Shown one piece after another: positions 1,118 to 23,887 of a stretch of 32,000 bases of DNA. Source of the stretch: an archaeon (GTDB lineage: Archaea > Iainarchaeota > Iainarchaeia > Iainarchaeales > CSSED10-239). The notes below the pieces were generated by a model that made no database searches, was not told the DNA's origin, and saw nothing but the letters and a program-made list of their open reading frames with translations. The stretch is taken from positions 17,401 to 49,400 of the forward strand of contig DAOOON010000002.1 of assembly GCA_035387745.1 (NCBI GenBank), in the 5' to 3' direction. Numbering within the stretch: position 1 is the first letter of the stretch; each line of letters starts with the position of its first letter. Both the position numbers and the translations under genes were made by a program.

Positions 1118-1492
1118 TTAAGACTTCCAAACTCCGTGTATATTACATAGACATCTTGCACTTATCTTATAGCCCCCACCTTTAAACTCAGCAACAGGCT
1201 CATCTCCTGGAGTTAGTTTCTTAACATACACTGAACCATCAATATTAACTTCAATCCATTTGATGTGATGCTCTGCTGTCATTGGGTGTGGTATGTCTCC
1301 AACTCTAACAACAATACTATCTCTTGTTTTTTCAATTACTGGAATGTGCTTTTCCTTTAATTGTTCTTCGCTAGTGTCGTGATGAAGATCCATGTTTTGT
1401 CCACAGCACACAAGCGTTCCGCCGCCAGCATCAATTACTTCAACAACGTTACCACAGATCGCACATCTATAAATTTCTCCTTTTTTTACCAT
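1118..1492 (-). CDS. dfx: Desulfoferrodoxin (2Fe superoxide reductase)
   Basis: 124 aa. Has the N-terminal desulforedoxin-like Cys cluster (CAICGN ... VCCGQ). Also has the C-terminal SOR centre-II ligand pattern (KHIPV, HPMTAEHHIKWIE, CNIHGVW). An AAGGGGGTAAAA ribosome-binding context lies upstream of the ATG. Confidence 0.9.
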   Translation of the reverse strand: MVKKGEIYRCAICGNVVEVIDAGGGTLVCCGQNMDLHHDTSEEQLKEKHIPVIEKTRDSIVVRVGDIPHPMTAEHHIKWIEVNIDGSVYVKKLTPGDEPVAEFKGGGYKISARCLCNIHGVWKS

Positions 1493-1506
1493 AGTTTTTT
1501 ACCCCC

Positions 1507-2085
1507 TTAATAATTCTCATTTTGTACTCTAAAATACTCTGGTGGATGACCACATGATGGGCATTCCTTTGGTGGTTCCTTTCCTTTGTGCATATATCCA
1601 CATTTACTACATATCCACACGACTTCTATTTCTTTTTTCAATAACGTTTTTTCATCTAAATTCTTTAATAATTTTTTATATCTTTCTTCGTGATGCTTTT
1701 CGGCAATTGCTATTGCTCTAAGTTTGTTTGCAATTTCGGGCATGCCTTCTTTTTCAGCGACATCAGCATATTCTGGATACATACTTGTATATTCGTGATT
1801 TTCCCCAGAAATTGCGGCTCTGAGATTGTCTGCTGTATTTCCATATGCTGTTGGAACATCTGCTTCAACAACTAGATCTTCTGTAATATTATTTTGTTTC
1901 TTTAATTCTCTTATTAATACAAACAATTGCTTTGCGTGTTCTCTTTCTTGTTCTGCGGTTTCTAAGAAGATATCTGCAATCTGAAATAAGCTTTCTTTTG
2001 TTGCAACCTTTGCATAGAAAGTATATCTGTTTCTTGCTTGAGACTCTCCAATAAAAGCCTTACATAGATTTTCTATAGTTTTCAT
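1507..2085 (-). CDS. rbr: Rubrerythrin (di-iron four-helix bundle plus C-terminal rubredoxin-like domain)
   Basis: The ORF track extends to 2124. The conserved N-terminus [21 protein letters not shown] starts at the ATG at 2085, which is preceded by AAGGGGGTAAAA. Di-iron ExxH motifs are present ([15 protein letters not shown]). The C-terminus has CSKCG...CPSCG. Confidence 0.9.
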
Positions 2086-2167
2086 ATATTTTACCCCCTT
2101 TATCCTATAAATATATAAAAGCATAAATATTAAATATATTGTTATAATATATCTATTGTAAAAAAGT

Positions 2168-3004
2168 GTGAAAAAGATGACTGAAAAAATAATTGAAGAA
2201 CTAAGTCAAATAAAATTTAAAGCAACAACCATCTATGAGTCCTTTAAATATCCTTTACATCGTACAAATAAAACACAAAGAATTCCTTTGTTAAAAAATA
2301 TAAAGAATAATATTGAGGAATTAACTAGACTATTAAATGGGCTTTTAGGTTATTCGTCTATACAATTTAATAAAGAAATTGAAGCAGAAAAGATCAGGCT
2401 GTTCCAAAACGTATTTCTGGAAATATCAGGTAAACTACAACAATCAATCTTTTTAGAAGAACACACCACAATTGTAGAAAATGATCTTGTAAATATAAAA
2501 AATGAAATTGCAACTCCTGAGAAATACTTTGAAATAGAACAATCTGTTAAAAACAATATAAATAACCTTATTATTTTTATTGATGATGCAAAAAAACAAA
2601 TTGATCACAAATATGTTAGTCTTGCAAATCAAAAAAGATCTGTTGAAGAGTTATTAAAAACACTTGAAAGAAAAGATCAAACAATATTGGAACTAAACAA
2701 AAGGATTGATGAACTCAATTGGATAGATGCAAAAGAAAAAGCAAAAACTTCAAGACTTGCAAATTTAGAAGAAGAATTACTTAAAACCTATAAAGCAAAT
2801 GAACAGGATCTTACCATTTTAAAGTTGCACATAATACATATTGAAAAGGCCCTAGATAATCTTTTAAGAGAATCAAAATCATTAACTCAAGATATTAATC
2901 ATCTAGAGGCAAAAAACATATTAAAAGAGCAAGCATCATTGGAATTGATTAAAGAATTAAAAAAAGAATTGATTGCAGCAAAATATAATTTAAAAAATAA
3001 GTGA
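2168..3004 (+). CDS. Coiled-coil protein, no TM segment (first gene of the surface-appendage locus)
   Basis: 278 aa, Lys/Glu/Leu/Asn-rich heptad-like sequence throughout (e.g. [29 protein letters not shown]). The start is GTG 2168 or ATG 2177. No SD is visible, and a TATAATATAT box ~27 nt upstream of 2177 suggests a leaderless mRNA. No family recognised. Confidence 0.6.
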
Positions 3005-3010
3005 TAAATA

Positions 3011-4537
3011 ATGTCTGAATATGATCCATTTGGCGGTAGATTTCCACAAGACTCCGAAAAACCAAAATCTAATTTTAAATTAGATGAAAAAACAATTGGG
3101 CTAATTAAGAAAGTAATTATTTTAGTCGTGGTTTTAGGTGTTATTGGGGGCGCGATTTATTTTTTCTTTTTTAATAACATTATAATTAATTTCTCTGTAA
3201 AAGACACAGAAGGGAAGGCATTAAATTCTGCAAACATAAAAATCACTCCTGAGAAACAAAATAAATCAATTCAATATTCTCCAGGAGATGAAATAAAATT
3301 AAATAAAAATAAAAATTATAAATATGCAATTGAATTAAAAGGATATAAAACAATTAATGGGCAATTAGCTCCTAAAGACATCGTAGAACCAAACCAGGCC
3401 ATTAAATTAGAAAAAGACATTAGACTAGATGTTCTTTCTTTTATTTGCCCAACAGACGTATTTATTGGGCAAACTGTTAAATGCGAATTACAATTAAATA
3501 ACATTAGCGAAAATGAGGACTATAATCTAGAAAATTTAATTTTTAGAGACGATAAAGATAAACCGCTTAAAAACTGGGCTGATTTAAATGATGAATTCTT
3601 AAGATTTGTAGACGGATTTGATGCAGAAGTCCCTAGCACCAAAATAATTACACACAAAACTAAAGACACTGTTTTTATTTTATTTAGTGTGCCAGAAAGT
3701 ATTAAACGCGGAACAACACAAAAAATTATGGCAAGAATTAAGTACACAGATAATAATGCAATTCAAGAAATAAAAATATCTCAAGCGCCCAATATAGGGT
3801 TTACTTCTGAACTGAGTAGTGCTTTAAATTTAGAAAGCGGAAATGAAATAATTAAAACATATACAATTGATAACTCTAAAAATAAAACAGATCTATCGGG
3901 ATTAGAACTAGAAATCGATGCAAATTATGAGCCCACAACTGGAGAATTAGATTCTAATTTCGATATAGCCGAAATAATAGTGCCAGATTATACCACCCTA
4001 AATGTAAATGCATCTTCGCGTTCACAAGGACAAATAACTATTAAATTACCTAATAATTTAAGGGCGGGAAAAATCACAGGAATTTTAGCATTAAACAGCC
4101 CCATTTTTTCTGAACCAAAAAAAATCACATTTACAATTAATATAAAGGAACCAGAAAATAAATTTAATATAAGTCTAAATAAAAGTACAGAAACGTTAGA
4201 TTATGATGCAAACACTAATATTACAACTATTAAACAGATAACTTTAAATTTAGATAACAAGAACAAAATTCCAGTTCATATAAATTCAATTTATATTGAA
4301 AACTCAACAGGAACAACAGATTGTAATCATTGGATAGTTCTTCCTACAGAATATAATGGTTATGACATTCAATCAAATTATAATCCAGCGCCTATAATTT
4401 TATTACAAGGATCGGACCTAGGCTCTTTAACAACAATAACTGGATTAAAGATTTGTAATATTAATGTAGATTATAGACATCCATATTTAGATGAAAATAT
4501 AATTATTAAAAATAAGATACAAATAAGTGTAAATTAA
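3011..4537 (+). CDS. Single-pass membrane-anchored surface protein, Asn-rich, CARDB-like beta-sandwich segments
   Basis: 508 aa. A ~35-aa charged N-terminus is followed by one hydrophobic helix (VIILVVVLGVIGGAIYFFFF). The rest is Asn/Thr/Ile-rich with many N-x-S/T sequons. Starts 6 nt after the previous gene. Confidence 0.6.
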   Translation: MSEYDPFGGRFPQDSEKPKSNFKLDEKTIGLIKKVIILVVVLGVIGGAIYFFFFNNIIINFSVKDTEGKALNSANIKITPEKQNKSIQYSPGDEIKLNKNKNYKYAIELKGYKTINGQLAPKDIVEPNQAIKLEKDIRLDVLSFICPTDVFIGQTVKCELQLNNISENEDYNLENLIFRDDKDKPLKNWADLNDEFLRFVDGFDAEVPSTKIITHKTKDTVFILFSVPESIKRGTTQKIMARIKYTDNNAIQEIKISQAPNIGFTSELSSALNLESGNEIIKTYTIDNSKNKTDLSGLELEIDANYEPTTGELDSNFDIAEIIVPDYTTLNVNASSRSQGQITIKLPNNLRAGKITGILALNSPIFSEPKKITFTINIKEPENKFNISLNKSTETLDYDANTNITTIKQITLNLDNKNKIPVHINSIYIENSTGTTDCNHWIVLPTEYNGYDIQSNYNPAPIILLQGSDLGSLTTITGLKICNINVDYRHPYLDENIIIKNKIQISVN

Positions 4538-6559
4538 ATGGACTATATTGATTGGATAATTTCTAGTGTTTTATTTATTACAGTTATTGCATTTGTACTT
4601 ATTAGTTTATTTAATATTTTACCTAAATCAAACAACACAAATACAATCAGTGATTTACTATATAAATCTACAATCTCTCTGATTATTCCGGTTTATAATG
4701 TTTCTATGATTTCTGAAGATTCAGAAGTGTACCCTTATGTTATTTCAGACTGTAATTATGGTAGAGCAGAAAACACATTTGAAATCGATACAAACAATAA
4801 TTTGTTATTTGGATTGATTTATGATAAAGATAAATTCTATAATTATGAAACAGACATTAATGCTTTATCTGGTCTTGGAGTACGATTATTATTAGAAAAC
4901 TTTAATGATTATAATTATCAAGACACTTTTGATTTAAATTCAGGAACCGCAAATATAAGTTCTGGAATTTTAGAGCTAGAGGCCGGTTCAACAATAGACA
5001 CAACAATAGAATTTTCTAAATATCTTGGTTCATTTGTAACAAATGCAGAAGATATAAACGTATATATTAATTTTGATACTACAAGCGACAGATTTTATTG
5101 TAGTTTTAATGAAACAGGCGTCCAGCTTTTTAAAATTGGAGAATCAGAAGCAATTGAAGAAAATAATACTACTCTAAAAACGACAAACTGGAGAAAATTA
5201 AATTTTGGATATTACAGGGACTTTGAGGGATTTTCCTGGTTTTTTTGTGGAATTGGCGAAAACATTAATATCCTAGAAACCTCTAGCCAAACACATCCCG
5301 AAGAAACCACAATAAGAATTGAAGCAATAGATGATCAAACTTATATAGATGATTTTAGGGTCTATAAAAGTTTAATTAATATAACAGAACATGATGGCAC
5401 TACAGTTAAAACAGATTCATTAAGAACAACAGTAACTAGCGCAGATATGAGAGTAGAATTCTATGAACTGTCCGAAATGGATGCTAATGAAGTATTGGGG
5501 TGTGCTCTGTCTTTTTCCACTTCAAGTGGAAATTTAAATAATTATAATGAGGGGCCAATTAAAATTTTCTCAAATGATTCAAATCAAAACAAATTAGTTT
5601 TCTTTCCTATAGCAAAAGAATTTTGGATATATAAGTATACTGGAGAAGATCCAATTACTATTACTTATATAGTTGATGAAATTAAACCGTATAATTTTGG
5701 TTCTGCAACAGAAAACGGGCAATTTGTAGATTTAAATAAAATACCAGGAAGCTATGCTGTGCCTGTTTCCTTTGTTCCTGAAAATTCTTTTACAACAGAA
5801 AATTTTGGTTCTTTTGATGTGAACTTTAATAAAGTTTTTTCTGAGATTACGCCAACAGGCGGTGGTTCTGAAACGCCAATTATACAATATTGTAAAGTTG
5901 AGGGATGTAGCGATATTACCAGTGATTCTAATTTTATATTTGATACTGATACAAACACGGCAGAAGTGATTTTTAAATTTCCGGAAGAAACTGTTGCTAA
6001 TCAACCATTTAATATTGTTATTATTTTTAACTATTTTAATTTAGAAAATTTAGAAAATGCTACCGGAGAGGCAACGGTGCTTGATGGCACACAGCTTACT
6101 GCAAGGGTCTCAGCAGAAGAAATTATAATTGATACAAATCAATTTTATTTATATAATATTTTTAATCCTATTTATCCAAACATTAAACAAACAATAATAT
6201 TTGATGTCTTTGATAATACAGGATTACATGCACAGGATTGTAACTTCTTTATAAATTGGGGTTCTCAAAATATAGTTGTAACTTGCGATGAAAATTATTT
6301 ACTTAAAGTTAGATATAGATTTACTGATTTAAATAATACCATTTTAGATTATCCAAATCTATCAATCACAAAGACTAACGAAAGAATTGTGACACAAGAA
6401 CATTTTGAGAATTTATCTTGTGATTCTTATTTTGTAAATATTAAAAATAAAACATTAGATGTTAACTGTGGTATTGGAGTTAATCCTAATTATAAAATGA
6501 TTATAAAATATCTTCATAATACGGGATTATTAGAAAATGCAGACATATATATAAAATAA
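4538..6559 (+). CDS. Large single-pass membrane-anchored surface protein, Asn-rich, heavily sequon-laden
   Basis: 673 aa. The N-terminal helix is WIISSVLFITVIAFVLISLFNIL. The ATG immediately abuts the stop of the preceding gene (4537/4538). Many sequons are present (NNT, NVS, NIS, NET, NTT, NIT, NDS, NAT, NLS, NKT). No family recognised. Confidence 0.6.
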   Translation: MDYIDWIISSVLFITVIAFVLISLFNILPKSNNTNTISDLLYKSTISLIIPVYNVSMISEDSEVYPYVISDCNYGRAENTFEIDTNNNLLFGLIYDKDKFYNYETDINALSGLGVRLLLENFNDYNYQDTFDLNSGTANISSGILELEAGSTIDTTIEFSKYLGSFVTNAEDINVYINFDTTSDRFYCSFNETGVQLFKIGESEAIEENNTTLKTTNWRKLNFGYYRDFEGFSWFFCGIGENINILETSSQTHPEETTIRIEAIDDQTYIDDFRVYKSLINITEHDGTTVKTDSLRTTVTSADMRVEFYELSEMDANEVLGCALSFSTSSGNLNNYNEGPIKIFSNDSNQNKLVFFPIAKEFWIYKYTGEDPITITYIVDEIKPYNFGSATENGQFVDLNKIPGSYAVPVSFVPENSFTTENFGSFDVNFNKVFSEITPTGGGSETPIIQYCKVEGCSDITSDSNFIFDTDTNTAEVIFKFPEETVANQPFNIVIIFNYFNLENLENATGEATVLDGTQLTARVSAEEIIIDTNQFYLYNIFNPIYPNIKQTIIFDVFDNTGLHAQDCNFFINWGSQNIVVTCDENYLLKVRYRFTDLNNTILDYPNLSITKTNERIVTQEHFENLSCDSYFVNIKNKTLDVNCGIGVNPNYKMIIKYLHNTGLLENADIYIK

Positions 6560-6575
6560 AAAGAACAATTTCTAA

Positions 6576-6740
6576 TTAGATTATTGCTCTAAGAATGAGG
6601 ATAACGATAGCAATACCTAAAGATAAACCTATTACTGCTTCTGGGGATAATTGCGGACCTGCTACAGACTCCTTAAATTTCATAATTCCTATAGCTGAAC
6701 TGGGACCTTGATTATTATTTTTAGAATAATTCATCTTCAT
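6576..6740 (-). CDS. secG: Preprotein translocase subunit Sec61beta (archaeal SecG)
   Basis: 54-codon ORF below the ORF-track cut-off: MKMNYSKNNNQGPSSAIGIMKFKESVAGPQLSPEAVIGLSLGIAIVILILRAII. It shows the family pattern S-x-x-G-[LI]-[MI]-[KR]-[FY] ... SP..V followed by a single C-terminal TM helix. It forms a visibly GC-richer island in an otherwise empty 265-nt gap. Confidence 0.7.
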   Translation of the reverse strand: MKMNYSKNNNQGPSSAIGIMKFKESVAGPQLSPEAVIGLSLGIAIVILILRAII

Positions 6741-6824
6741 AAATTTATCACAATTTAAATAGAACTATATATATTTAAAGAAACCAAAACCTTTTATATT
6801 AATCTATTTTATATTTTATTAGGG

Positions 6825-7763
6825 TTGAAGGGTATGGTAGAGCAGAAACAATCAGAATATAAGTGGCTGGTAAGAATAATATTTCTTTTAATAATTATAG
6901 TTGCGGCATTATTTGTATTTATTTGGACAGGAACTATAAGGTGCAGATCTATACCTGGCGGCTGCAACGTGTACTGGAGCGTTATGACTATAGTTACAGG
7001 AAAACAACAACCGAGCGTTCTAATTTTATATGACCCTACAGATCAGAAAGGTCTGGGTAATCCCGAACTATTAAAAGATTTGCTGACTGATCGAAAAGGG
7101 GTGGCAATACACCCTTCCCTTGCGGATATTCGATACCTTAATTCTGAACAATTAAAGAACGTAAGTCTTGTAGTTGTAGAAAAGGCAAGAAAAATTTCTA
7201 CGCTTCAATTAATGACTATGCGAAACTATATCGCACAAGGCGGAAGAATTGTTTGGATTGGAGATGCAGGAATAGAACACAATGAAGATAAAGGAGATTT
7301 GCTATATGTTGGCCCAGAAAACGAAAAAAAAAATGGATGGGTCAGATTAACAGATGCAAATATGATTATATTTTTTAACAGAACTCTAGGGGTTAATTAT
7401 GTTGCAAATTTTTGCGATATAAGAGATTGCGATGTTGGGGATAAATTTACTGGAAAGTTAATGCCAAGTTCAGACACTCATCCGTTAGTTTATGGTTTAA
7501 AACCAAATCTCCCAATCTCTGATAATTATTCTATAGTGACCTTGATAGAACCTAATCCCGTTCCTTTAAAAATAGATTTTGGAGCAAATCTGCGAGATAC
7601 AAATAATAACGGTTACGGAGACATATTTGATGCCATAGTGACCAGCAATTCAAATAGAGTGGCTTACTATGCTATCCCCCCTGAATATCTTGCAGAAGAC
7701 AAAGATGGAGAAAACAAATATTTTTCTATTATTTATAATATGTTTGAGGGAATGGTAAATTGA
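6825..7763 (+). CDS. Membrane-anchored extracytoplasmic globular protein with paired cysteines
   Basis: 312 aa, TTG start (ATG alternative at 6834). TM helix LVRIIFLLIIIVAALFVFIW. Has Cys pairs (CRSIPGGC, CDIRDC). The alternating strand/helix pattern VLILYDP...VSLVVVEKARKIS...YIAQGGRIVWIGDAG is reminiscent of flavodoxin-like / GATase1-like folds. That fold guess is weak. Confidence 0.6.
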   Translation: MKGMVEQKQSEYKWLVRIIFLLIIIVAALFVFIWTGTIRCRSIPGGCNVYWSVMTIVTGKQQPSVLILYDPTDQKGLGNPELLKDLLTDRKGVAIHPSLADIRYLNSEQLKNVSLVVVEKARKISTLQLMTMRNYIAQGGRIVWIGDAGIEHNEDKGDLLYVGPENEKKNGWVRLTDANMIIFFNRTLGVNYVANFCDIRDCDVGDKFTGKLMPSSDTHPLVYGLKPNLPISDNYSIVTLIEPNPVPLKIDFGANLRDTNNNGYGDIFDAIVTSNSNRVAYYAIPPEYLAEDKDGENKYFSIIYNMFEGMVN

Positions 7764-7764
7764 C

Positions 7765-8118
7765 ATGACAAAATCTTTTGAAGTCGCAATTTCTATCATT
7801 TTGCTTTTATTTTTTGTTTTTTTTTTATTTGAAACTATAAATCAGAAATATTCTCAAAATCCTATACCAGAAGAAGTTAAAACCATAATTTTATTAGAAG
7901 CTAGAGATTCGGGATTTAGGGAACTTATCTCTAACTCTGAAGTTGATAATGTCTATTCTTTACTTTATCCGCAAATGGATTATAGATTTAATGTAAGCAT
8001 TTGTGATTGGTTAGATGATAATTGTGAAAATAGAGAATTAGAGAATTTCGCAAAAAAAAGAGAATTTGTGTATTTCTTTTCTGATACTAATAAAACCCTT
8101 CATATTGAATTAGATTAA
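7765..8118 (+). CDS. Small pilin-like protein (possible class III signal peptide)
   Basis: 117 aa. The N-terminus MTKS/FEVAISIILLLFFVFFLF has a short basic tip, a small residue, then ~20 hydrophobic residues. Two Cys are present (CDWLDDNC). Starts 1 nt after the previous stop. Confidence 0.5.
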   Translation: MTKSFEVAISIILLLFFVFFLFETINQKYSQNPIPEEVKTIILLEARDSGFRELISNSEVDNVYSLLYPQMDYRFNVSICDWLDDNCENRELENFAKKREFVYFFSDTNKTLHIELD

Positions 8119-8130
8119 AGGAGCAATAAT

Positions 8131-8610
8131 TTGAAAAAAGGATTTACATACATTGTAACTACAATGTTACTTATAATACTTATAAGTGGGGTTGTTATTG
8201 TATCTAATTATAACGCCCCAGGGAATAAAATAAACCCTGTAGCAATACTTGCAAAAAACTATGAAAACGAGTTCTTAAATATTTTAAACTCTGGTTCATC
8301 TGTTGAAGACATTAATCAATTTAATTATAGATTTAAGAAATTTATAAACAGCAATAATTATGATTCTAAATTGTGTAATTTAATTACTACAGAGAATGGG
8401 ATTATTGCAAGCAATTTTATGGACCAAAATTGTGATTTAATGATAAATGGAGTATCTAATCAAACAATTACAGAGAATAACACAATTATAACAGATATAT
8501 TTATAAATGATACGAATATATATTTATGTAACTGTTATTATAAGGCAGGAGAGAATATCTATTATATAGATATTTATAATGAGAACTCAAAAACTACATT
8601 TAAAAATTAG
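8131..8610 (+). CDS. Type IV pilin-like protein (class III signal peptide KKG/FTY...)
   Basis: 159 aa. TTG start with a GGAG SD 8 nt upstream. The N-terminus MKKG/FTYIVTTMLLIILISGVVIV resembles the [KR]G-cleavage prepilin motif. Five Cys lie in the mature part. Confidence 0.55.
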   Translation: MKKGFTYIVTTMLLIILISGVVIVSNYNAPGNKINPVAILAKNYENEFLNILNSGSSVEDINQFNYRFKKFINSNNYDSKLCNLITTENGIIASNFMDQNCDLMINGVSNQTITENNTIITDIFINDTNIYLCNCYYKAGENIYYIDIYNENSKTTFKN

Positions 8611-8620
8611 AGGGGATATT

Positions 8621-8971
8621 ATGAAGAATGTAACTGAACTATTAAATCAGATAGAAGAAAGAACTAACATAATTGTTGCAAAATTAGAAATTTTAAGATT
8701 TGCAGAAGAAGATGTTCAGACAATTAAAAAATCATTAGAAGTAATTAAAAAGAAACTTGAATCTGGAGAAATAAGTAAATTTTCGTATGCCACAATGCTA
8801 GAAATAAACAAAAAAAGAGCAATGGAAAATACCAATTCCAAAAAGAAAACGTGGGATGAAGTTGCAGAATCCATAAATGAAATAAGCGATTTACTAAATG
8901 ACTTAAAAGATACATTCAATGCTAAAACAGAATTTGAGGGAATAGATGAAATTAAAACATCAAAGTCTTAA
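8621..8971 (+). CDS. Small coiled-coil protein
   Basis: The ORF track starts at 8579, inside the previous gene. I prefer the ATG at 8621, which is preceded by AGAGGGGAT. 116 aa, helical Lys/Glu-rich, no TM segment. Confidence 0.5.
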   Translation: MKNVTELLNQIEERTNIIVAKLEILRFAEEDVQTIKKSLEVIKKKLESGEISKFSYATMLEINKKRAMENTNSKKKTWDEVAESINEISDLLNDLKDTFNAKTEFEGIDEIKTSKS

Positions 8972-9004
8972 ATTATTATTTAAAATCGAATATAAAGATG
9001 AGCC

Positions 9005-10987
9005 ATGAAAATACCAAATCAAAAGGATGCATCAAAACTTTATGACCTAATTCTTAATCTTAAAAATATCGAAAATCAAAGAACTGCAAAAGAACAAGAA
9101 ATATTAACTAAATTCTATAATCAAGAACTAGATTCTAAAAAACTAGTTTCTGAATTAAAGAAAGAAAAATTATTTTCTAATTCTAAAAAATTAGATTTGA
9201 ATTTTATTAACACATTTATTGAATATAGCAAACAACTAGAATTTCTTTCCGAAAACATAGATGTAACTACTATAAAAGAATATAAATTAACTAAAAGACC
9301 AGCACCTTTTATTTTAGGATTAAAAAAAATATTTTCTTCAAAAACTACCAAAATTAGCGAAAAAAAGAAATCTGCAAAACCAAAATTAGTGGAAGTTAAC
9401 CCAAAAGAGAAAAAACAACAACAAAATATATTCCAAAGCCTTTTTAAAAATCTTAAGACAGATAAAGAAACCATAAAAATTAAAGAAAATGCTAATCCGT
9501 TGCCTTCTTTTGAAGAACCAAAAGAATTGTTACCAGAGAACTATCAAATATTAATTGAGGGCTATGCCTATGCATTTGTTGAAGAAAAAGAAGGTTCCAG
9601 AAGATATGTTGTTGCAGAACCTGAATTAACCTCAGCTGAAGAAAAAATACTTAAAGAGACAAAACAAGAATTAATAAATAAAATATCACTTATTGAAATA
9701 AAAGACGAATCTGAATTAATAAAAAGAATAGAAAAAATATTTAATAAAACAAAGATTACTCCTCAACAAAAATCAAAAATAATGTATTATGTAGGCAGAC
9801 AGATTAAAGGGCTAGATCTTATAGAACCATTAATGCACGACCCGTTAATTGAAGATATAGAATGCGATGGAACAGGCATTCCAATATTTATTGTTCATAG
9901 AAAATATGGCCATCTTGAAACTAATATTGCATACAAAGATGAAAAAGAACTACAACAGTTTGTAATTAAGATGGCGCACTTAAGTAAAAGCTATGTTTCA
10001 TATGCTAGCCCTTTACTTGATTCTATACTTCCCGACGGTTCTCGTGTTAACGCTACACTTACAACTAACGTTTCAACTAGAGGCCCAACATTTACTATAA
10101 GAAAATTCCCACACACCCCTTTAACCGCAATTGATTTAATTACTAGCGGCACATTAAACCCTATGATTGTCGCGTATATTTGGACAATAATGGAATTTCA
10201 AAAAACTGCATTAATAATTGGGCCAACAGCTGGCGGGAAAACTACATTATTAAATGTTATTACTTCTTTTATTCCTCCAGGAAGAAGAGTTGTTTCAATT
10301 GAAGATACTAGAGAAATAAATTTACTTTTAGATAACTGGGTACCACAAATAACTAGACCCGGGTTTGGCCCCCCTGATGGAACTGGCAAAAAATACGGGG
10401 AAGTTACGATGCTTGATCTTATTAAAGAATCATTTAGACAAAGACCAGATTATTTAATTGTAGGGGAAGTCAGAGGAGAAGAAATGTCAATCATGTTTCA
10501 GGGCATGGCATCTGGTCACTGTTGTTTGTCTACTGTTCACGCAAGAAGCCTGCCTGACCTCGTAAACCGACTTATAACCCCACCAATATCTCTTGAACCA
10601 GCACTATTAACTTCTCTTGACCTTGTTATTGTTACTGGATTTGAAGGTGGCAGCGACATAAAAAGAACAATAAAAGAACTAGATGAAATTAAAGGATTTA
10701 ATTCTAAAGAAAATAAAATAGAATATACGGCAATATATAATGTTTATGAACGCTCTCAAGAAAAAGACGGGGATTTATTCACACACGAACTGCCAATTAC
10801 CTATAAGAGCGAAATTTTACAATCTATTGCTAGAGAATATAATATTAATATAAACCATTTATTAGAAATGATAAACAAAAGAATCAAATTTGTAGAAGAA
10901 TTAACCAAAAATCCCCCAAAAGACTATGTTGAATTTAAAATTGCAATAAATAAATATAAATTGCAAGAAAAAGTAATTACTAATTAG
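9005..10987 (+). CDS. Type IV filament assembly ATPase, FlaI/ArlI-PilB (T2SSE/VirB11) family, with long N-terminal extension
   Basis: 660 aa. Walker A GPTAGGKTTLLN. Asp/Walker B region RPDYLIVGEVRGEE. His box GHCCLSTVHA. The archaeal FlaI-type N-domain hallmark RRYVVAEPELTSAEE is present. Residues 1-~175 are a Lys-rich, non-conserved extension. Confidence 0.9.
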   Translation: MKIPNQKDASKLYDLILNLKNIENQRTAKEQEILTKFYNQELDSKKLVSELKKEKLFSNSKKLDLNFINTFIEYSKQLEFLSENIDVTTIKEYKLTKRPAPFILGLKKIFSSKTTKISEKKKSAKPKLVEVNPKEKKQQQNIFQSLFKNLKTDKETIKIKENANPLPSFEEPKELLPENYQILIEGYAYAFVEEKEGSRRYVVAEPELTSAEEKILKETKQELINKISLIEIKDESELIKRIEKIFNKTKITPQQKSKIMYYVGRQIKGLDLIEPLMHDPLIEDIECDGTGIPIFIVHRKYGHLETNIAYKDEKELQQFVIKMAHLSKSYVSYASPLLDSILPDGSRVNATLTTNVSTRGPTFTIRKFPHTPLTAIDLITSGTLNPMIVAYIWTIMEFQKTALIIGPTAGGKTTLLNVITSFIPPGRRVVSIEDTREINLLLDNWVPQITRPGFGPPDGTGKKYGEVTMLDLIKESFRQRPDYLIVGEVRGEEMSIMFQGMASGHCCLSTVHARSLPDLVNRLITPPISLEPALLTSLDLVIVTGFEGGSDIKRTIKELDEIKGFNSKENKIEYTAIYNVYERSQEKDGDLFTHELPITYKSEILQSIAREYNININHLLEMINKRIKFVEELTKNPPKDYVEFKIAINKYKLQEKVITN

Positions 10988-10989
10988 AT

Positions 10990-12297
10990 TTATTTAAAAG
11001 GGTCTCTTCTATTAAACAAGTATTCTGGATCTATGTCCTTTGATTTTGTTTTTTGTTTTGGCTTATTTTTTATTTTGATTTTCTTTACTAAAGTTATACT
11101 CACTAGAACCACAATTGTTGCAACAATAATATAAATAAAATATTTTGTTAAGTCCTGAGTTTCAATCTCATTAATCCCTGCATCCTTTATTTTTTTTACT
11201 TGATTTTTTGCCAGTTTTATCTTGCTTATACTCTCTTCATACCTGCCTTTATTATATAATTCTTTTATTTGAGCATAATTTTGACTTAATTCAGATACAG
11301 TTTTTGTGTCTTTCCATAAATTTATATTTTCTGAATTTAGTATTTGATTTATGGAATTATCTAGTGTGCCTTTTAAATCTGTATTAAAATTATATAGCAA
11401 AGATTTTGCAACATAATAATTTTGTCTAGTCTCTAGAGTTTGTTGTAAGATCTCTAAGGGACTATTGGGCCCTGCTTTTTCAAAATCAGCAATCACTAAA
11501 GAATAGAACTGATTTGTTGATGCAAGGCTATCTGTTATCGTAGAAATGTCCCCGTTTAAGTTATTTGGAGCTTCAATATAGCTCAGGATTATCTTTTTTG
11601 TGGTTTCATCTAATTTTTGATCTGCAACTATAACTTCAACAATCTCATTAGTTGAATCTCGGTAATTTATAGAAGATGAAACAATATCGTTATACCCCTT
11701 AAACGTATTTTTATATAATAATATCAAACTATCTGCTTTTGTACAATCGGTAGTATCTAAAAACGTAGATTGTTCTTTTTGTAATTTACTAAGCTTTGTT
11801 TTCATGTCTTGTAATTGATTAATTAATAATTCTAATTTATCTTTTGTGTTCTGACATTTTGTAGTTATTGAAGAAGAATAATTTGATCTAATAATTCCGT
11901 CTAATTTTGCGGATTTTGATTGCAAGGTTATATTTAAATTATCTATTTTGTCAACTAATTGCTGAGACAAATAGTTGTTTCCACTTTTGGTTTTTATATT
12001 TCTATTAAGTAAGGCCGTTTTAATGATATTTTGGGTATTTGTATTTATTTCATAAATAACAGACCCATTATTTGATTCTATAGGCAAAAATAACACAATA
12101 TTTGATTCTGCATCAACAATATTTAGTGTATAATACTCGTTATTATCGCAATCAATATAGTAAACACTGCCAGGATCTAAATATTCATTATTTGACAACA
12201 TATATTCTTTAGCAATATCCTGTGCCGAATATAAGGAAATGGCTTGTGCCATCGGAATTATAAACAACAAAAACATGACAGCAATAATTTTTTTCAT
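10990..12297 (-). CDS. Secreted or anchored coiled-coil protein (signal peptide plus C-terminal TM and basic tail)
   Basis: 435 aa. Signal peptide MKKIIAVMFLLFIIPMAQA/IS. Long helical middle region. C-terminal helix YFIYIIVATIVVLVSITLV followed by KKIKIKNKPKQKTKSK. The ATG overlaps the upstream stop (ATGA at 12294-12297). Confidence 0.6.
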   Translation of the reverse strand: MKKIIAVMFLLFIIPMAQAISLYSAQDIAKEYMLSNNEYLDPGSVYYIDCDNNEYYTLNIVDAESNIVLFLPIESNNGSVIYEINTNTQNIIKTALLNRNIKTKSGNNYLSQQLVDKIDNLNITLQSKSAKLDGIIRSNYSSSITTKCQNTKDKLELLINQLQDMKTKLSKLQKEQSTFLDTTDCTKADSLILLYKNTFKGYNDIVSSSINYRDSTNEIVEVIVADQKLDETTKKIILSYIEAPNNLNGDISTITDSLASTNQFYSLVIADFEKAGPNSPLEILQQTLETRQNYYVAKSLLYNFNTDLKGTLDNSINQILNSENINLWKDTKTVSELSQNYAQIKELYNKGRYEESISKIKLAKNQVKKIKDAGINEIETQDLTKYFIYIIVATIVVLVSITLVKKIKIKNKPKQKTKSKDIDPEYLFNRRDPFK

Positions 12298-13268
12298 TCT
12301 TCCTCTTCTTTAAATATTTTATTGAACAAATATACTATTGCTGCAAATATTAAAAAAACTATTGATAGGCCAGTATAAACGAAAGAAGAAAATGCTAATG
12401 CAAAGAAAAATGCAAAATTGCTTTCTATAAAACCCATAAATGGAATTGCCTTTATTGTGTCTATGATTTTGACTTTAATAACTGGCGCATCAAGATCTGG
12501 CATTAGTTCTTTTATTTCTGCAGTTGTTTTATTTGCTGCTGCAGAGGTTTTTAGATTTTCCATAAAATCAGTAAAATCAGAAGAAGTTTCATCTGTTTTT
12601 ATTCTTAATTCCAAATATTCTCTAGATTCCATAATATATTTTAAATTAGACAAAGTGCACTGCTGGTTTATTATATATGAGGTGCTAATCCAGGGGTCAA
12701 TATTATCTGCAATAAATAGATTTACAAGACCTGCTTCGAATTCTTCTACTTTTTTATTTTGCTCTGGAAGAATATATATTGCAGAAGAAATGAATAATCC
12801 AATTATTAAAAATATAGTTAATTTAGATAAATAATCTGTTGTTTGATTAAACAAATTTTTCTCAGATGTTTTTTTAACTATTAAACACAAAATAAGATGT
12901 GCTGATATATATAATATTAGAAATAAAATAAAATAAATATTAAGCTTTAAAAATATAACCGAAAAAATAAAAGACAAAAATAAACCGACACCAACAATGA
13001 TTAAACTTTCTTTTTTTACAGAATTATATATGATTGATAAAATAATTATGGAAGTTATAGGAAAAAATATCACAAAAAATAGAAAATTTAGAGAAAATAT
13101 AGAATTAAGTATTGTCGCTATATCAAATACCCTGAAAGCATAAGCCGTTAACTTAGAAGAAATCAAAAAATAAATCCAAAAAAATGAAGAGAACGTAACA
13201 ATTAATAATTTTATTAGATGTTTAGAATTAAATTCCATTGCACCTTTTTTATTTATCATAAATTCCAC
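12294..13268 (-). CDS. Polytopic membrane protein (~7 TM) with ~100-aa soluble loop
   Basis: 324 aa. Five N-terminal hydrophobic helices, a soluble segment (EQNKKVEEFEAG...APVIKVKIID), then two C-terminal helices. The GTG start at 13268 overlaps the map stop by 1 nt, with ATG alternatives at 13259 and 13238. No family recognised. Confidence 0.55.
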   Translation of the reverse strand: MEFMINKKGAMEFNSKHLIKLLIVTFSSFFWIYFLISSKLTAYAFRVFDIATILNSIFSLNFLFFVIFFPITSIIILSIIYNSVKKESLIIVGVGLFLSFIFSVIFLKLNIYFILFLILYISAHLILCLIVKKTSEKNLFNQTTDYLSKLTIFLIIGLFISSAIYILPEQNKKVEEFEAGLVNLFIADNIDPWISTSYIINQQCTLSNLKYIMESREYLELRIKTDETSSDFTDFMENLKTSAAANKTTAEIKELMPDLDAPVIKVKIIDTIKAIPFMGFIESNFAFFFALAFSSFVYTGLSIVFLIFAAIVYLFNKIFKEEEE

Positions 13269-15880: not shown

Positions 15881-16996
15881 TTATACGCTTTCAATATTTA
15901 GTTCTAATTTTTCTTTTTTCTTTCCTATGTTTGTTCCAACAATGTCACTTAAGTAAGGAATATCTGCGCCTGCAATTACTGCCATAACTTTTATTGAGTT
16001 TCTTGGCATGTCCTCATCAACCATGGCCCCCCAGATAATGTGAGCATCTTGACTAATCTTTGAAGCTACCGTTTCAACTATTAGCTCTGCTTCTTTAAGA
16101 GTCATGTCTTGGCCACCCAAAACATTTACTAGAGCTTTTCTAGCATTACCAATCTCAATATCAAGTAATGGTGAGGTTAGTGCATCTTCTACTGCTTCCA
16201 TTGCTCTTGAATCGTTATTATTCTTGTTTATTGAGCTTTCTCCAACACCGATCATTGCTAGACCCCCATTTGAAAGTATGGTTCTTAGATCAGCAAAGTC
16301 AAGATTAATTATTCCTGCTTTTGTTACTAGTTCAATTATTCCTTTAACTGATTGTGTTAAGATTTTATCCACTTCTTGAAAAGCAATCTGTAATGGTAAG
16401 TCTGGTGCAATTTCTAAAATCTTATCATTTGGAATAATTATTAAAGTATCAACTTCTTTCTTTAATCTTTCAAGACCACCTAGTGCATTTTCAATTCTTT
16501 GCTTTCCTTCAACAGCAAATGGTAAGGTTACAACGCCTATTATTAGTGCGCCTTTTTCTTTTGCAATCCTGGCCACTTCTGGTATTGCGCCTGTTCCTGT
16601 TCCTCCGCCAAGTCCACAAGTAACAAAGACCATGTCTGCGTCTTTTAATACATTCTTTATTTCGTCTTTGGATTCCTCTGCTGCAGCTCTGCCAACTTCT
16701 GGGTTTGAACCAGCACCAAGGCCTCTTGTAGTTTTCTTTCCTATTAGCATTTTTTTATCTGCTCTAATCTTTAATAATGCTTGAGCATCAGTATTCATGG
16801 CTATCATTATTGCGCCTTCAATACCTGTCTGATTCATTCTGTCAAGACTATTACCGCCAGAACCGCCAACACCAATAACATAGATGTTTGGAAGAGATGC
16901 TTTTAGAAATTCCTCTAATTCCTCATCATCACTTCTTTGAACTTTTTCACTATTCTCGTCTTGTGCAACTACGCGGCTGCTTTGCATTCCTGACAA
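15881..16996 (-). CDS. ftsZ: Cell division GTPase FtsZ
   Basis: 371 aa. Tubulin signature CGLGGGTGTGAIPEVA. GVGGSGGN and NTDAQAL motifs are present. The TTG start at 16996 has GGGGG 8 nt upstream. The ATG alternative at 16987 would sit 17 nt from the SD. Confidence 0.95.
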   Translation of the reverse strand: MSGMQSSRVVAQDENSEKVQRSDDEELEEFLKASLPNIYVIGVGGSGGNSLDRMNQTGIEGAIMIAMNTDAQALLKIRADKKMLIGKKTTRGLGAGSNPEVGRAAAEESKDEIKNVLKDADMVFVTCGLGGGTGTGAIPEVARIAKEKGALIIGVVTLPFAVEGKQRIENALGGLERLKKEVDTLIIIPNDKILEIAPDLPLQIAFQEVDKILTQSVKGIIELVTKAGIINLDFADLRTILSNGGLAMIGVGESSINKNNNDSRAMEAVEDALTSPLLDIEIGNARKALVNVLGGQDMTLKEAELIVETVASKISQDAHIIWGAMVDEDMPRNSIKVMAVIAGADIPYLSDIVGTNIGKKKEKLELNIESV

Positions 16997-17146
16997 AATT
17001 CATTCCCCCTGGCTTGTTATCTTATCTTTAAACATAAAACATAAATATAATATAAAAAAAGATATTATATTTATAGACTAGAAACCTTTAAATATAAATC
17101 TATTTTAGGTTATATAGAGACAGAAAGCTAAAATTAAGGAATTTTT

Positions 17147-18055
17147 ATGATAGATAAAGACATTTTAAGAATTGGTAAAGACATTAAAGAAATAAAAATA
17201 CAAGGCGCAAGTAAGATTGAGCTTGCTGCAGTTAATGGTATTAAAGAACTTATTAATAAAAGCAAATTTGAAGGAAACGACTTTTTAGGAGTCGTTGTAG
17301 AAAATATTAATCATTTGATTTCTCAAAGACCAAATGAACCAAAACTTAGAAACTCTCTTTCTTATATCTGGCAGATGTCAAACAAATATTTCAGTATAAA
17401 AGACAGAAATTTACTTGTTGATTTGATTGAAAATTATGAGAGAAATATTACGCAAAATAATGAACTGATTTCAGAATATGCTTCTCAGTTGATTGTTAAT
17501 GGCTCAACAATTCTTACACATTGCCATTCTAACTTAGTAGAAAACGCATTTAAGAAGGCCTATGATAGAGGCACAGACTTTGAAGTAATCTGTACTGAGA
17601 CTAGACCTAGGTTTCAGGGACGAATTACTGCTAAAGCCCTAAGCGAATATGGAATCAAGACTACGCAGATTGTGGATTCTGCAGTATCAGGGTATCTTAA
17701 AAAGATTGATTTTTTTATGACTGGTGCTGATGTTATTTTTCAAGACGGTTCTATTATGAACAAAGTTGGAACGCACACAATTAGTATTGTTGCTAAGAAT
17801 TTTAAGACTCCGCACATTGTTCTAACTTCCACTCATTGTGTGGAGACAGATGTTTTTGTTTCTTTAAATGAATCTATAGAAGAAAGAGATATTGATGAGA
17901 TTTGGAAAGTTGAAGACGGAAGGCCAAAAGATTTAAAGTTAAGAAATCTTTCTTTTGATATTGTTCCAAACGAATTGATTGATAAATTCATAACAGAAGA
18001 AGGTGTTTTTTCTCCAGAAACTCTTGCACTCTGGGTTAGGAAGAATTTGAAATAA
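17147..18055 (+). CDS. eIF-2B alpha/beta/delta family protein, likely ribose-1,5-bisphosphate isomerase
   Basis: 302 aa. Family motifs TILTHCHSN, CTETRPRFQGR and TGADVIFQDGSIMNKVGT. The archaeal single-domain members of this size are usually R15P isomerases. That functional assignment is inferred. Confidence 0.75.
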   Translation: MIDKDILRIGKDIKEIKIQGASKIELAAVNGIKELINKSKFEGNDFLGVVVENINHLISQRPNEPKLRNSLSYIWQMSNKYFSIKDRNLLVDLIENYERNITQNNELISEYASQLIVNGSTILTHCHSNLVENAFKKAYDRGTDFEVICTETRPRFQGRITAKALSEYGIKTTQIVDSAVSGYLKKIDFFMTGADVIFQDGSIMNKVGTHTISIVAKNFKTPHIVLTSTHCVETDVFVSLNESIEERDIDEIWKVEDGRPKDLKLRNLSFDIVPNELIDKFITEEGVFSPETLALWVRKNLK

Positions 18056-18073
18056 AAACCCAAATTATTTAAA

Positions 18074-18904
18074 TTAAACGGAAATTTGATTCTCTATAAT
18101 TAAATTATTGTTTATGCAAGAATAGTCATTTACCTTTATATCTAATGCCTTAACTCGTTTTATAGTTAAATCTAAATATTTCTTATCTAAATCAATACCA
18201 ATATATCTGCGATTATACAATTTAGATACAATGCCTGTTGTCCCAGAACCATTAAATGGGTCTAATACTAGATCTCCTTTGTCAGTTGTGGATAAAACAA
18301 TTCTTTTCAATAATTCTAATGGTTTTTGGGTGGGGTGTTTACCCGATCTTTTTTCCAGTTGAGGTGTTAGAGGTATCCACCAAACACTTCTCATTTGTTT
18401 TCCTGATTCACTAATCTTATCTTCCCATTTTTTCATAAGTTCATAATTAAATTTGTGTTTAGATCCTTTTTCTTTTCTTGCCCAAATCAAAGTTTCGTGG
18501 CTATGAGCAAAATATCTACAACTTAAATTTGGCGGGGCATTAGGTTTAAACCAAGAAATTTCATTAAGTATTTGATAATCTAATATTTGTAATGCATAAC
18601 CAACTTGATAAATGTTGTGCATTGTTCCGGATATCCAAATACTTCCTGTATCTTTTAAAACTCTTCTACACTCAGATAACCAGTCAAATGTAAATTCAAA
18701 ATCTTTAACAACCCCGTTTGATTTATCCCAATCTGCTTTATTTACTGAAACCATTTTACCGGCTTTACAAGAAACGCCGCCATTTGATAAAAAGTACGGG
18801 GGGTCTGCAAAAATAAGATCTACTGAATTGTCTGGCATTTCTTTTAATATTTTAATACAATCTCCTTGATGAAGATTAAAATCAAGAGAATTATAATAGT
18901 TCAT
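18074..18904 (-). CDS. Beta-class DNA methyltransferase (N6-adenine/N4-cytosine; DpnA / M.MboIC-like), M2 of R-M cassette
   Basis: 276 aa. Motif IV IFADPPYFLSNGG lies near the N-terminus and motif I LDPFNGSGTTG near the C-terminus, which is the beta-class circular permutation. HPTQKP is present. Confidence 0.85.
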   Translation of the reverse strand: MNYYNSLDFNLHQGDCIKILKEMPDNSVDLIFADPPYFLSNGGVSCKAGKMVSVNKADWDKSNGVVKDFEFTFDWLSECRRVLKDTGSIWISGTMHNIYQVGYALQILDYQILNEISWFKPNAPPNLSCRYFAHSHETLIWARKEKGSKHKFNYELMKKWEDKISESGKQMRSVWWIPLTPQLEKRSGKHPTQKPLELLKRIVLSTTDKGDLVLDPFNGSGTTGIVSKLYNRRYIGIDLDKKYLDLTIKRVKALDIKVNDYSCINNNLIIENQISV

Positions 18905-18938
18905 AAAGATATATACAATTAGTTATTTATATATCTTT
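18905..18938 (-). promoter_or_regulatory. Palindromic TATA-containing element abutting the start codon of the M2 methyltransferase (probable leaderless promoter or operator)
   Basis: Perfect 11-bp inverted repeat AAAGATATATA (18905-18915) / TATATATCTTT (18928-18938) with a 12-nt spacer. On the coding strand it reads AAAGATATATAAATAACTAATTGTATATATCTTT-ATG. The ATATATAAAT box is centred ~26 nt upstream of the ATG, and no SD lies in between. Confidence 0.45.
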
Positions 18939-18960
18939 TGGGGGTAGTTGTCCAGTGGCA

Positions 18961-19482
18961 TTATGGTTTAGGCAAACCTAAAAATTCCAAGGGTATTTCA
19001 TTAAAGAAATAATAACAATTTACTGATTTTATATAATCTAAAACATCTTTGTATTCTAGTTTTTTGAACCAATCATTTAACAGATAAGTGTATTTAACTT
19101 TGATATTTAATGGTTTAAATAATTTGTTATATTGTTTATTCTTAAAATCGCAAGTCTGTAATTTTTCATCTACAGAACCAGCCACTTCTTGAAATTTAAT
19201 TTCTATAATAAATAGTGTGCGTTCTTTCAATACAAATATAGCATCATCAGGCAATAACTTTTTAGAAATATAATTCAAATAATTTATGCCACTTGGTTCT
19301 AAAAAATTTTTATAAATTTTGTGTTTTTGATAAAAGGTAGCAATCTTTTTACCATTAAAGAAAATATCGTCGTTCTTTATGTCATATCCTTTAATTTGAG
19401 TAAATAATTGCTTTAACGAAATTCTTTCTTCAAATCTAAGTCCAGTAATGGTTTTCCCTCCACCGACGCCACTTTTTATCAT
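18961..19482 (-). CDS. Putative type II restriction endonuclease, PD-(D/E)xK fold
   Basis: 173 aa, sandwiched between two methyltransferase genes. Candidate catalytic motif LLPDD(79-80)...LFIIE(94)IK(96)FQ. GGTGAT SD upstream. The function is inferred from context and motif only. Confidence 0.5.
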   Translation of the reverse strand: MIKSGVGGGKTITGLRFEERISLKQLFTQIKGYDIKNDDIFFNGKKIATFYQKHKIYKNFLEPSGINYLNYISKKLLPDDAIFVLKERTLFIIEIKFQEVAGSVDEKLQTCDFKNKQYNKLFKPLNIKVKYTYLLNDWFKKLEYKDVLDYIKSVNCYYFFNEIPLEFLGLPKP

Positions 19483-19493
19483 ATTATCACCAA

Positions 19494-20351
19494 TTAATAA
19501 TTTTTTATTAGTACTTCCTTAATTTCATTTCTTTTTGTGCCATCACAATTTATCATTCTTTTTGCTAAAACTTCTTTGATTTTATATTTTTTATATTGTT
19601 CTTTAATAAATGGGGTTGGACTATTGCTTTCTAAAACAAAACACCCTTTTTTATCCAATTTATCAAATATATTTTTTAATCTCAATTGATCGGATCTAAC
19701 AAAGTCATTACTTGTATAACTTGTAAAACTATTCCCGTTTATTTGATCATATGGCGGATCAAAATATATAAATTCTTTCGCCTTTGCAAAATCTATAACG
19801 TCTTCAAAAGGCATTACCTTCATTTGTACATTTTGTAATAATCTTGATGCCTCTAATATATTTTTTTTACTAAATATTTCTGGATTCTTGTATTTGCCCA
19901 TAGGCACATTAAATTGATTGTCTTTGTTTACTCTATATAATCCATTAAAACAAGTTTTATTTAGATAAATAAATCTTGCAGCTCTTTCAATATTATCTAA
20001 TTTATTGTATTTTGGGTCACTAAGAACAATTCCTAATCTTTTTGTTGTTGGAGTTTCAAGTCCTCTAATGGTATAATAAAATTCTTCTGAATGCTTAGAC
20101 TTATATTTCTCTAACATTTTAATTAATTCGTCTGGCTCTGTTTTAATTATTAAAAACGAATTTATTAACTCTTCATTAATATCAGAAATTAAAACTCTTT
20201 TTGGGGGAAAGTTTTCTAAAATATAGAATAATAGTGCGCCGCCACCAATAAAGGGTTCATAATAGCCTTTTATTTCTTTTGGCATAGTAGAAATAATCTC
20301 TTTTAATAGCTGGTTCTTTCCTCCAGCCCATTTAACAAAAGGTTTTGCCAT
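19494..20351 (-). CDS. Dam-family (alpha-class) N6-adenine DNA methyltransferase, M1 of R-M cassette
   Basis: The ORF track extends to a GTG at 20441. The conserved N-terminus MAKPFVKWAGGKNQLL begins at the ATG at 20351. Motif I is EPFIGGGALLF, followed by RFIYLNKTCFNGLYRVN...FNVPMG, and motif IV is YFDPPY. Confidence 0.85.
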   Translation of the reverse strand: MAKPFVKWAGGKNQLLKEIISTMPKEIKGYYEPFIGGGALLFYILENFPPKRVLISDINEELINSFLIIKTEPDELIKMLEKYKSKHSEEFYYTIRGLETPTTKRLGIVLSDPKYNKLDNIERAARFIYLNKTCFNGLYRVNKDNQFNVPMGKYKNPEIFSKKNILEASRLLQNVQMKVMPFEDVIDFAKAKEFIYFDPPYDQINGNSFTSYTSNDFVRSDQLRLKNIFDKLDKKGCFVLESNSPTPFIKEQYKKYKIKEVLAKRMINCDGTKRNEIKEVLIKNY

Positions 20352-20521
20352 ATGTTGTCTATTTTTATTATATAACTTATAATTGAATATATTTATAAAA
20401 TCTAACGTGTTATTCTTTTGTGAAAATGAGATAATGCCCACAAATTTAGGAATTATATAAAACTCTAATCTGTTAATTTAAAATTGGTTATTGTAATCGG
20501 TTATAACTACGGAGGATAATT

Positions 20522-23822: not shown

Positions 23823-23887
23823 TTTTTTCACCAAATTTAAATAAATAACCTAAATATATTTAGATAAAAGAATATATAAATGTTATG

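Follow-up and report, generated by a model that had tools for sequence, protein, structure and literature searches.

The gene cluster considered here lies in a low-GC (guanine plus cytosine ~30%) stretch of 32,000 nucleotides of archaeal DNA (GenBank assembly GCA_035387745.1, contig DAOOON010000002.1, positions 17,401 to 49,400 of the forward strand), which as a whole is called the window. The cluster ends in the gene of a type IV pilus assembly ATPase that has no membrane platform gene (T2SSF family) beside it. A preliminary description, made from the letters alone, had listed eight plus-strand genes in two tight blocks. All eight open reading frames (ORFs), named A to H here, were present at the positions it gave, as were the spacers: 6 and 0 nt in the first block (A-C), and 1, 12, 10 and 33 nt in the second (D-H) if G is taken to start at 8621. 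The genes of the locus are all conserved at the protein level in relatives and can therefore be considered real.

The first block encodes A (2168-3004, +; gene callers place its start at 2177), a soluble, Lys/Glu/Leu-rich protein of 278 amino acids (aa); B (3011-4537, +), a protein of 508 aa with an N-terminal anchor and a large domain outside the membrane; and C (4538-6559, +), a surface protein of 673 aa with one N-terminal hydrophobic helix (MDYIDWI...). The second block consists of D (6834-7763, +; the ORF opens at 6825 and gene callers choose the ATG at 6834), a membrane-anchored, ThuA-like protein of 309 aa; E (7765-8118, +), a minor-pilin-like protein of 117 aa; F (8131-8610, +), with a class III signal (MKKG↓FTYI, the arrow marking the predicted cleavage site); G (8621-8971, +; started at 8621 or 8579 by gene callers), a soluble, Lys/Glu-rich, helical protein of 116 aa; and H (9005-10987, +), the assembly ATPase of the FlaI/T2SSE family, 660 aa long with an N-terminal extension of ~200 aa. 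One N-terminal hydrophobic segment was found in each of B, C, D, E and F, as had been claimed for the genes starting at 3011, 4538, 6825, 7765 and 8131, and none was found in A and G, the two Lys/Glu-rich proteins that had been called soluble. Gene I (10990-12297, -), encoding a secreted protein of 435 aa with a signal peptide and a C-terminal membrane anchor, converges on H with stops 2 nt apart, as described, and is followed by J (12294-13268, -), encoding a polytopic membrane protein of 321-324 aa.

The assignment of H to the T2SSE/FlaI type was confirmed. H matched Pfam T2SSE (PF00437) at 4e-30, above the gathering score, and its best NCBIfam model was FlaI (NF058587; 8e-99), with 331.7 bits against a cut-off of 550. 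Thus, H is FlaI-like, not archaellum FlaI. The second-best NCBIfam model was the bindosome ATPase BasE (NF053672; 6e-63, 213 bits against a cut-off of 1000), and the CpaF/TadA-like model TIGR03819 was also matched (7e-41). Walker A (GPTAGGKT, residues 406-413) and Walker B (LIVGE, residues 484-488) are both intact. About 59 full-length relatives (clusters), 54-100% identical to H, were collected; a scan of genome contigs with H yielded no more than two close relatives, besides two bacterial matches of no relevance (L008 and L009; retrieved loci are numbered in this way).

Neither the T2SSF nor the peptidase A24 models of Pfam and NCBIfam were matched by any window ORF. A T2SSF gene hidden in an unannotated frame of the window or of related loci was also considered and rejected, since tblastn with ten T2SSF proteins of related archaea against the window and six related loci gave nothing better than an E value of 0.03, and nothing in the window. 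PF01478 (A24 peptidase) was matched neither by the window genes nor by the called genes of L010-L021. The reported lack of a platform and of a prepilin peptidase at the locus was thereby borne out. The prepilin peptidases PibD and FlaK are often unlinked from pilus loci in archaea, so the absence of a peptidase from the window is unremarkable, and the earlier expectation of finding one in the locus was too strict.

Gene order in the clade and in sister lineages

Loci with ATPases 87, 75, 69 (over 74% of the query), 65, 58 and 55% identical to H were inspected. Eight clade loci (the window, L006, L007, L010, L011, L012, L021 and the near-identical L001-L005) share one order: a C-like gene, Sec61-beta on the minus strand, D, E, F, G and the ATPase, then I and J on the minus strand. 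None has a T2SSF gene. Of the eight-gene order, whose conservation in relatives was to be checked, the part from C to H was thus kept in all eight loci, and homologues of A and B were found only in the nearest relatives (L006, L007 and L010). Beyond the convergent I and J, the clade loci continue with genes for MetAP, a small anchored protein, L11, Spt5, SecE and FtsZ. Annotations of the relatives read "archaeon", Candidatus Iainarchaeum or Diapherotrites, which makes the lineage one of the DPANN type.

The Sec61-beta gene (6576-6740, -; 54 aa, PF03911) separates blocks A-C and D-H and had been overlooked before. PF03911 was also matched by a called Sec61-beta gene in L001-L004, L010-L012 and L021. 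Because this gene occupies the same position on the opposite strand in every clade locus, C and D-H do not form one transcript. It is a housekeeping gene and no part of the pilus system.

In sister lineages, whose ATPases are 45-56% identical to H over the catalytic core, two T2SSF genes accompany the ATPase in seven of seven loci (L013-L017, L045 and L046). There, pilin genes and the gene of a large LamG/DUF2341 adhesin are followed by an E-like, an F-like and a G-like gene, the ATPase gene, two T2SSF genes and pilin genes again; in L017, one HD-domain gene stands between the ATPase and the T2SSF pair. This order is the ancestral one. Clade profiles of C, E, F and G matched the positionally equivalent genes of these canonical loci, and A, B, D, I and J had no counterparts. 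On these profile matches, we would define the conserved module as the adhesin, E, F, G and the ATPase. The canonical loci L013, L016, L017, L045 and L046, annotated as Diapherotrites or "archaeon", resemble the window clade in their orthologous ATPase (50-56% over the core), in homologues of C, E, F and G in the same order, in an orthologous T2SSF pair (39-46%) and in tandem pilins. They differ in having the T2SSF pair immediately downstream of the ATPase (in L017 after the one HD-domain gene), in a much larger adhesin (1093-2366 aa) and in the lack of D, I and J.

The large Asn-rich proteins had been described as belonging to no recognizable family. C itself has no Pfam match, but its orthologues in L011 and L012 match PF10102 (DUF2341) and that in L021 matches Laminin_G_3 (PF13385), so the description no longer holds for C. 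The clade profile of C matched a 2211-aa LamG/FG-GAP protein of canonical locus L017 at 2e-15, and the N-terminal motif M-x-Y-I-D-W is common to both. C is thus likely to be a pilus-associated adhesin of the DUF2341/LamG type, judging from these domain and profile matches. At the extreme N-terminus of the adhesin-like proteins (window 4538-4630; L017 2085-2180; L021 4634-4730), M-[DEH]-[YH]-I-D-W-[IV] is followed by the hydrophobic helix, and no leader peptide is visible.

E and F had both been called small and pilin-like. F bears this out with a clear class III signal; its motif K/N-G↓F-[TA]-Y-I is conserved in all clade orthologues, and its clade profile matched L017 (2e-19), L016 (1e-12), L013 (1e-9) and L046 (4e-7). 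Among B, D, E and F, such a signal is clearly predicted only in F, and B and D are plain membrane-anchored proteins. E has instead an N-terminus that looks leaderless and is conserved (M-[IT]-K-[STV]-x-E-x-x-I-A), with a hydrophobic helix after it, and its clade profile matched the equivalently placed gene of canonical loci (L017 2e-14, L016 3e-12, L013 3e-8, L015 5e-3). Across the E family (window 7765-8118; L017 8717-9103; L013 7935-8333; L015 6931-7209), the motif reads M-[IT]-K-[STV]-x-E-[AVL]-x-I-A, in which the Glu of position 6 is conserved. With nearly no leader ahead of the helix, these proteins resemble an already "mature" pilin.

G lacks a hydrophobic segment, and its gene is always directly upstream of the ATPase gene. 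With the clade profile of G, the gene that immediately precedes the ATPase gene was matched in L017 (3e-26), L045 (8e-19) and L046 (6e-15). G is probably a cytoplasmic partner of the ATPase, and as it keeps this place in several DPANN lineages, it is a candidate for an accessory factor. In L015, the region 16284-20440 encodes a second T2SSE ATPase of 739 aa that is only distantly related to H (27% identity), then a 652-aa protein without a Pfam match, then Nre; this ATPase may be another one lacking a recognizable T2SSF partner.

Location of the platform genes

A profile search with the T2SSF proteins of the sister lineages led to P0170, a T2SSF protein annotated as Candidatus Iainarchaeum, which shares the 281,921-bp contig JASEYN010000020.1 (GCA_030154545.1) with a clade ATPase, P0018. 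This ATPase is 65% identical to H, and its locus, within the stretch 200,983-223,022, is of the window type without T2SSF. The T2SSF pair (292 and 276 aa; L018) lies in the stretch 134,906-155,784, ~55-65 kb from the ATPase. It is followed by four small proteins of 150-168 aa, at least three of which have pilin-type N-termini, and the site adjoins a DRG-type GTPase gene. No ATPase was found within that stretch.

A metagenome scan with the clade T2SSF proteins yielded 26 loci. Most of them (24 of 26) were low-GC (23-33%) and carried the T2SSF pair, and in 21 of these 24 the pair was followed by 1-5 genes whose N-termini resemble that of a pilin encoded elsewhere in the window (23925-24656, -). 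None of the 24 had an ATPase within the retrieved stretches. In L033, for example, the T2SSF pair (294 and 275 aa) is accompanied by four tandem pilin genes. The remaining two loci (L045 and L046) are of higher GC content and come from sister lineages: L045 has the intact order G, ATPase, T2SSF, T2SSF and four pilins, and L046 has G, ATPase, T2SSF, T2SSF up to the end of its stretch. Comparing the sister order with that of the clade loci places the breakpoint precisely at the junction of the ATPase gene with the first T2SSF gene. The earlier supposition that the missing parts are encoded elsewhere is thus supported by the pair and four small proteins of GCA_030154545.1 and by 24 further T2SSF-pair loci with no ATPase in their retrieved stretches.

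The clade T2SSF proteins were most similar to those of L017, then of L013/L016, then of L015 and L014, and the ATPase identities fell in a broadly parallel order (L017, L016, L013, then L014/L015), as expected for cognate partners. From this orthology, we infer that the T2SSF pair works with the present ATPase. H would then not be truly an orphan; the comparison supports a move of the T2SSF pair and the main pilin genes together to another genomic site in the clade.

The scenario of a decaying remnant, in which the ATPase locus was left behind when the platform genes were lost or moved, can be judged at this point. The lost adjacency to the platform and the small, reduced genomes speak for it. 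However, the Walker motifs of H are intact, H is conserved at full length with 54-100% identity over ~59 clusters, D, E, F and G are co-conserved with it, and the platform pair is retained, so that we regard decay as extremely unlikely.

The window pilin (23925-24656, -) lies outside the A-H locus and combines the N-terminus KLKG↓IAPIITVIL with a CHB_HEX_C_1/Fn3-associated domain (Pfam CHB_HEX_C_1, 4e-19). This N-terminus matches those of the pilins after the relocated T2SSF pair in L018-L047, and the window pilin is likely to be a substrate of the same machine. Class III signals with predicted cleavage were found in F (MKKG↓FTYI...), in the window pilin and in the four tandem pilins after the L033 T2SSF pair; a Pfam Pilin_N match was sub-threshold (3e-3). 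As an archaeal pilin N-terminus fused to a chitobiase/hexosaminidase C-terminal domain, the window pilin may have a carbohydrate-binding head.

Its gene adjoins that of a 219-aa polytopic protein (23175-23834, -) without a family match. This protein was considered as a hidden prepilin peptidase or platform and dropped, since it had no Pfam match and no GxGD-type motif was seen by eye.

A few genes downstream of the T2SSF and pilin module, L033 (13269-14702, -) and L018 (15561-17024, -) encode, on the strand opposite to that module, three to four small proteins with N-terminal hydrophobic helices. One of these starts MLSKNKKG↓FLSV, which is class III-like, and the group may comprise further minor pilins.

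The pilus reading and its alternatives

We consider it probable (about 0.8) that a conventional archaeal type IV pilus system with two platform genes is here split over two loci, of which the present one is the half with the ATPase. Under this reading, hexameric H, probably with G, would dock on the T2SSF heterodimer encoded elsewhere and drive the polymerization of the ~155-aa pilins, which would first be processed at their class III signals by a prepilin peptidase, also encoded elsewhere. E and F would serve as minor or priming pilins. C, with its pilin-like N-terminal helix, would be displayed as a pilus-borne adhesin.

Similar systems have been described. Makarova et al. (2016; PMC4858521) reported loci with one ATPase, two TadC-like genes, large adhesin-like proteins of the DUF2341 type and several minor pilins, and the preprint of Sivabalasarma and Albers (2026; 10.64898/2026.04.22.720090) reports from DPANN archaea systems that have two platforms, namely system 1 and subsystem 4A. 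Like the window clade, the "clade 1" or Epd-like systems of the former and system 1/subsystem 4A of the latter have a FlaI-family ATPase and two separate T2SSF genes, as well as a large DUF2341/LamG adhesin-like protein and several small minor-pilin-like proteins, and they too occur in DPANN archaea. The window clade differs from them in that ATPase and platform are at different loci and that the ThuA-like D is inserted in the operon. Moreover, its major pilins, encoded beside the T2SSF pair, are of ~155 aa (150-168 aa), compared with ~70 aa in the Epd type, and neither an EppA-type peptidase nor a FleN/MinD ATPase was found near the clade loci, unlike in Epd-like systems. On gene content, the window system is a candidate member of the two-platform kind, of either the Epd-like type (clade 1 of Makarova, system 1) or 4A.

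Other relatives are more distant. The archaellum motor (FlaH/FlaI/FlaJ) shares the ATPase family, FlaI being the best NCBIfam model of H, but the FlaI score of H is under the equivalog cut-off, and the window has no FlaH, FlaJ, FlaF/G, FlaC/D/E/X or archaellin genes; the clade platform is also a split TadB/TadC-like pair. The bacterial Tad/Flp pilus (TadA, TadB, TadC) is similar in the CpaF/TadA-like ATPase match and in its two single-domain T2SSF platform proteins. The present system is, however, archaeal and has no secretin, TadZ or Flp-type pilins; the class III signals of its pilins are of the archaeal type.

This type IV filament hardware might also be put to a use other than an adhesive pilus, such as a short pseudopilus that displays or secretes C or B in the manner of a type II secretion system or bindosome (Bas), or DNA uptake. 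It would agree with this that the ATPase locus holds only minor-pilin-like genes and large surface proteins, with the major pilins elsewhere, that BasE is the second-best NCBIfam model of H, and that D has a ThuA-like fold of the kind associated with sugar enzymes. Against this, the BasE score is far under its cut-off, no substrate-binding protein or ABC transporter genes are found in the locus or nearby, unlike in the bindosome, and the relocated module retains four tandem pilin genes, which are typical of a real filament. Such a use is therefore unlikely.

The preliminary description had also raised a reduced or re-wired apparatus with novel components. In the form that bears most directly on the missing platform, H would work with J, and perhaps I, as a new, non-T2SSF platform. 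I and J are located just downstream of the ATPase, where sister lineages have T2SSF, and are kept there in all clade loci, and J has a confident model with no known fold. The J model (AlphaFold2, AF2; predicted local distance difference test, pLDDT, 85.3) gave as its best PDB match in Foldseek the helices of ABC exporters, at a template modelling (TM) score of 0.19-0.23 and an E value of 9e-3. The 16 detectable homologues of J, a family seemingly restricted to the window's clade, have no Pfam domain, and the family profile had no match in Pfam (15 members) or among PDB sequences. J as a divergent FlaJ/PilC was therefore rejected: no local ORF, J included, was an ordinary member of that family by profile or structure search. 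The hydropathy segments and AF2 helices, taken with the positive-inside rule, lead us to infer that the only sizeable soluble domain of J (about residues 165-270) faces outward, which would leave almost no cytoplasmic surface for an ATPase, the opposite of what a docking platform needs. J is thus a poor candidate even as a functional analogue of the platform. Furthermore, I and J, together with MetAP and ribosomal genes, form a run convergent to the ATPase gene, neither of the two has a homologue in the sister pilus loci, and the orthologous T2SSF pair is kept in the clade. We consider a J-based platform highly improbable.

The claim of novel components fared no better elsewhere in the locus, given that C, E, F and G are homologous to genes of canonical loci and D is ThuA-like. 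The AF2 model of D (pLDDT 90.7) matched ThuA-like proteins, the GH42 trimerisation domain and the IFT52 GIFT domain in Foldseek at an E value of 2e-7. ABC_transp_aux was matched by 13 of 39 relatives of D. The family comprises 134 representative clusters (50% identity) at E<=0.001, with some members of 400-790 aa, and profile comparison found no homologue in the sister pilus loci. According to its model and these matches, D has a ThuA-like fold, similar to class I glutamine amidotransferases, and is a clade-specific insertion in the operon. D as a novel pilus component was rejected on account of this ordinary fold and its absence from the sister pilus loci. It is also very unlikely that D, I and J became working parts of the machine after the departure of T2SSF, for example as a new envelope/adhesion sub-complex or an alternative docking site. 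If this were true, the clade would have a mechanistically distinct DPANN attachment apparatus and not merely a rearranged pilus locus.

Several points weigh against the reading as a split pilus system. The platform pair in the window's own genome is deduced from relatives, the closest of which has a 65%-identical ATPase, and the metagenome T2SSF loci are not tied to the window's species; L033, for instance, comes from another metagenome-assembled genome (HOW29184.1 versus HOZ35480.1). A second T2SSE ATPase elsewhere in the clade genomes may serve the T2SSF and pilin locus. A prepilin peptidase was seen in none of the loci examined. Roles for D, G, I and J can only be suggested. Finally, the whole ~20-kb clade region is syntenic, ribosomal and FtsZ genes included, so that conserved order inside the clade is weak evidence for function.

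If the locus is half of a split pilus system, what is new here is limited to the unusual placing of ATPase and platform at separate loci, together with a few neighbouring genes specific to the clade. Detectors that work locus by locus and ask for ATPase, platform and peptidase in one place, the MacSyFinder models of the preprint (10.64898/2026.04.22.720090) among them, would miss the system or score it as incomplete, and an "orphan" ATPase would be wrongly inferred from such a miss. If these archaea are episymbiotic, one may conjecture that a pilus and a LamG-type adhesin are plausible tools for host attachment.

Other genes in and around the locus

A and B had no family match in Pfam or NCBIfam. 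They form an operon with C but stand outside the conserved pilus module. I, conserved in the clade at 31-45% identity, likewise had no Pfam or NCBIfam family match. A, B, I and J are regarded here simply as neighbours of the machine.

The window also encodes FtsZ, ribosomal protein L11, Spt5, a family-B DNA polymerase (PolB), TBP, AglB/STT3, Nre and IF-2B, and SecE is among the gene calls of near-identical contigs. Between IF-2B and PolB, the region 18074-20441 (-) carries two DNA methyltransferases (N6_N4_Mtase, 2e-59; D12 class, 2e-63) around a small PD-(D/E)XK-like protein with a weak match to PDDEXK_11 (7e-4, under the Pfam cut-off), and resembles a restriction-modification island. The IF-2B and PolB genes adjoin in L010, L011, L012 and L021. 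In L001, which has an identical ATPase, acetyltransferase and radical-SAM genes follow IF-2B, and the spot is therefore strain-variable.

Directly upstream of A, desulfoferrodoxin (superoxide reductase) and rubrerythrin genes are found at 1118-2124 (-), which fits an anaerobe. The same organism is present in anaerobic-digester metagenomes.

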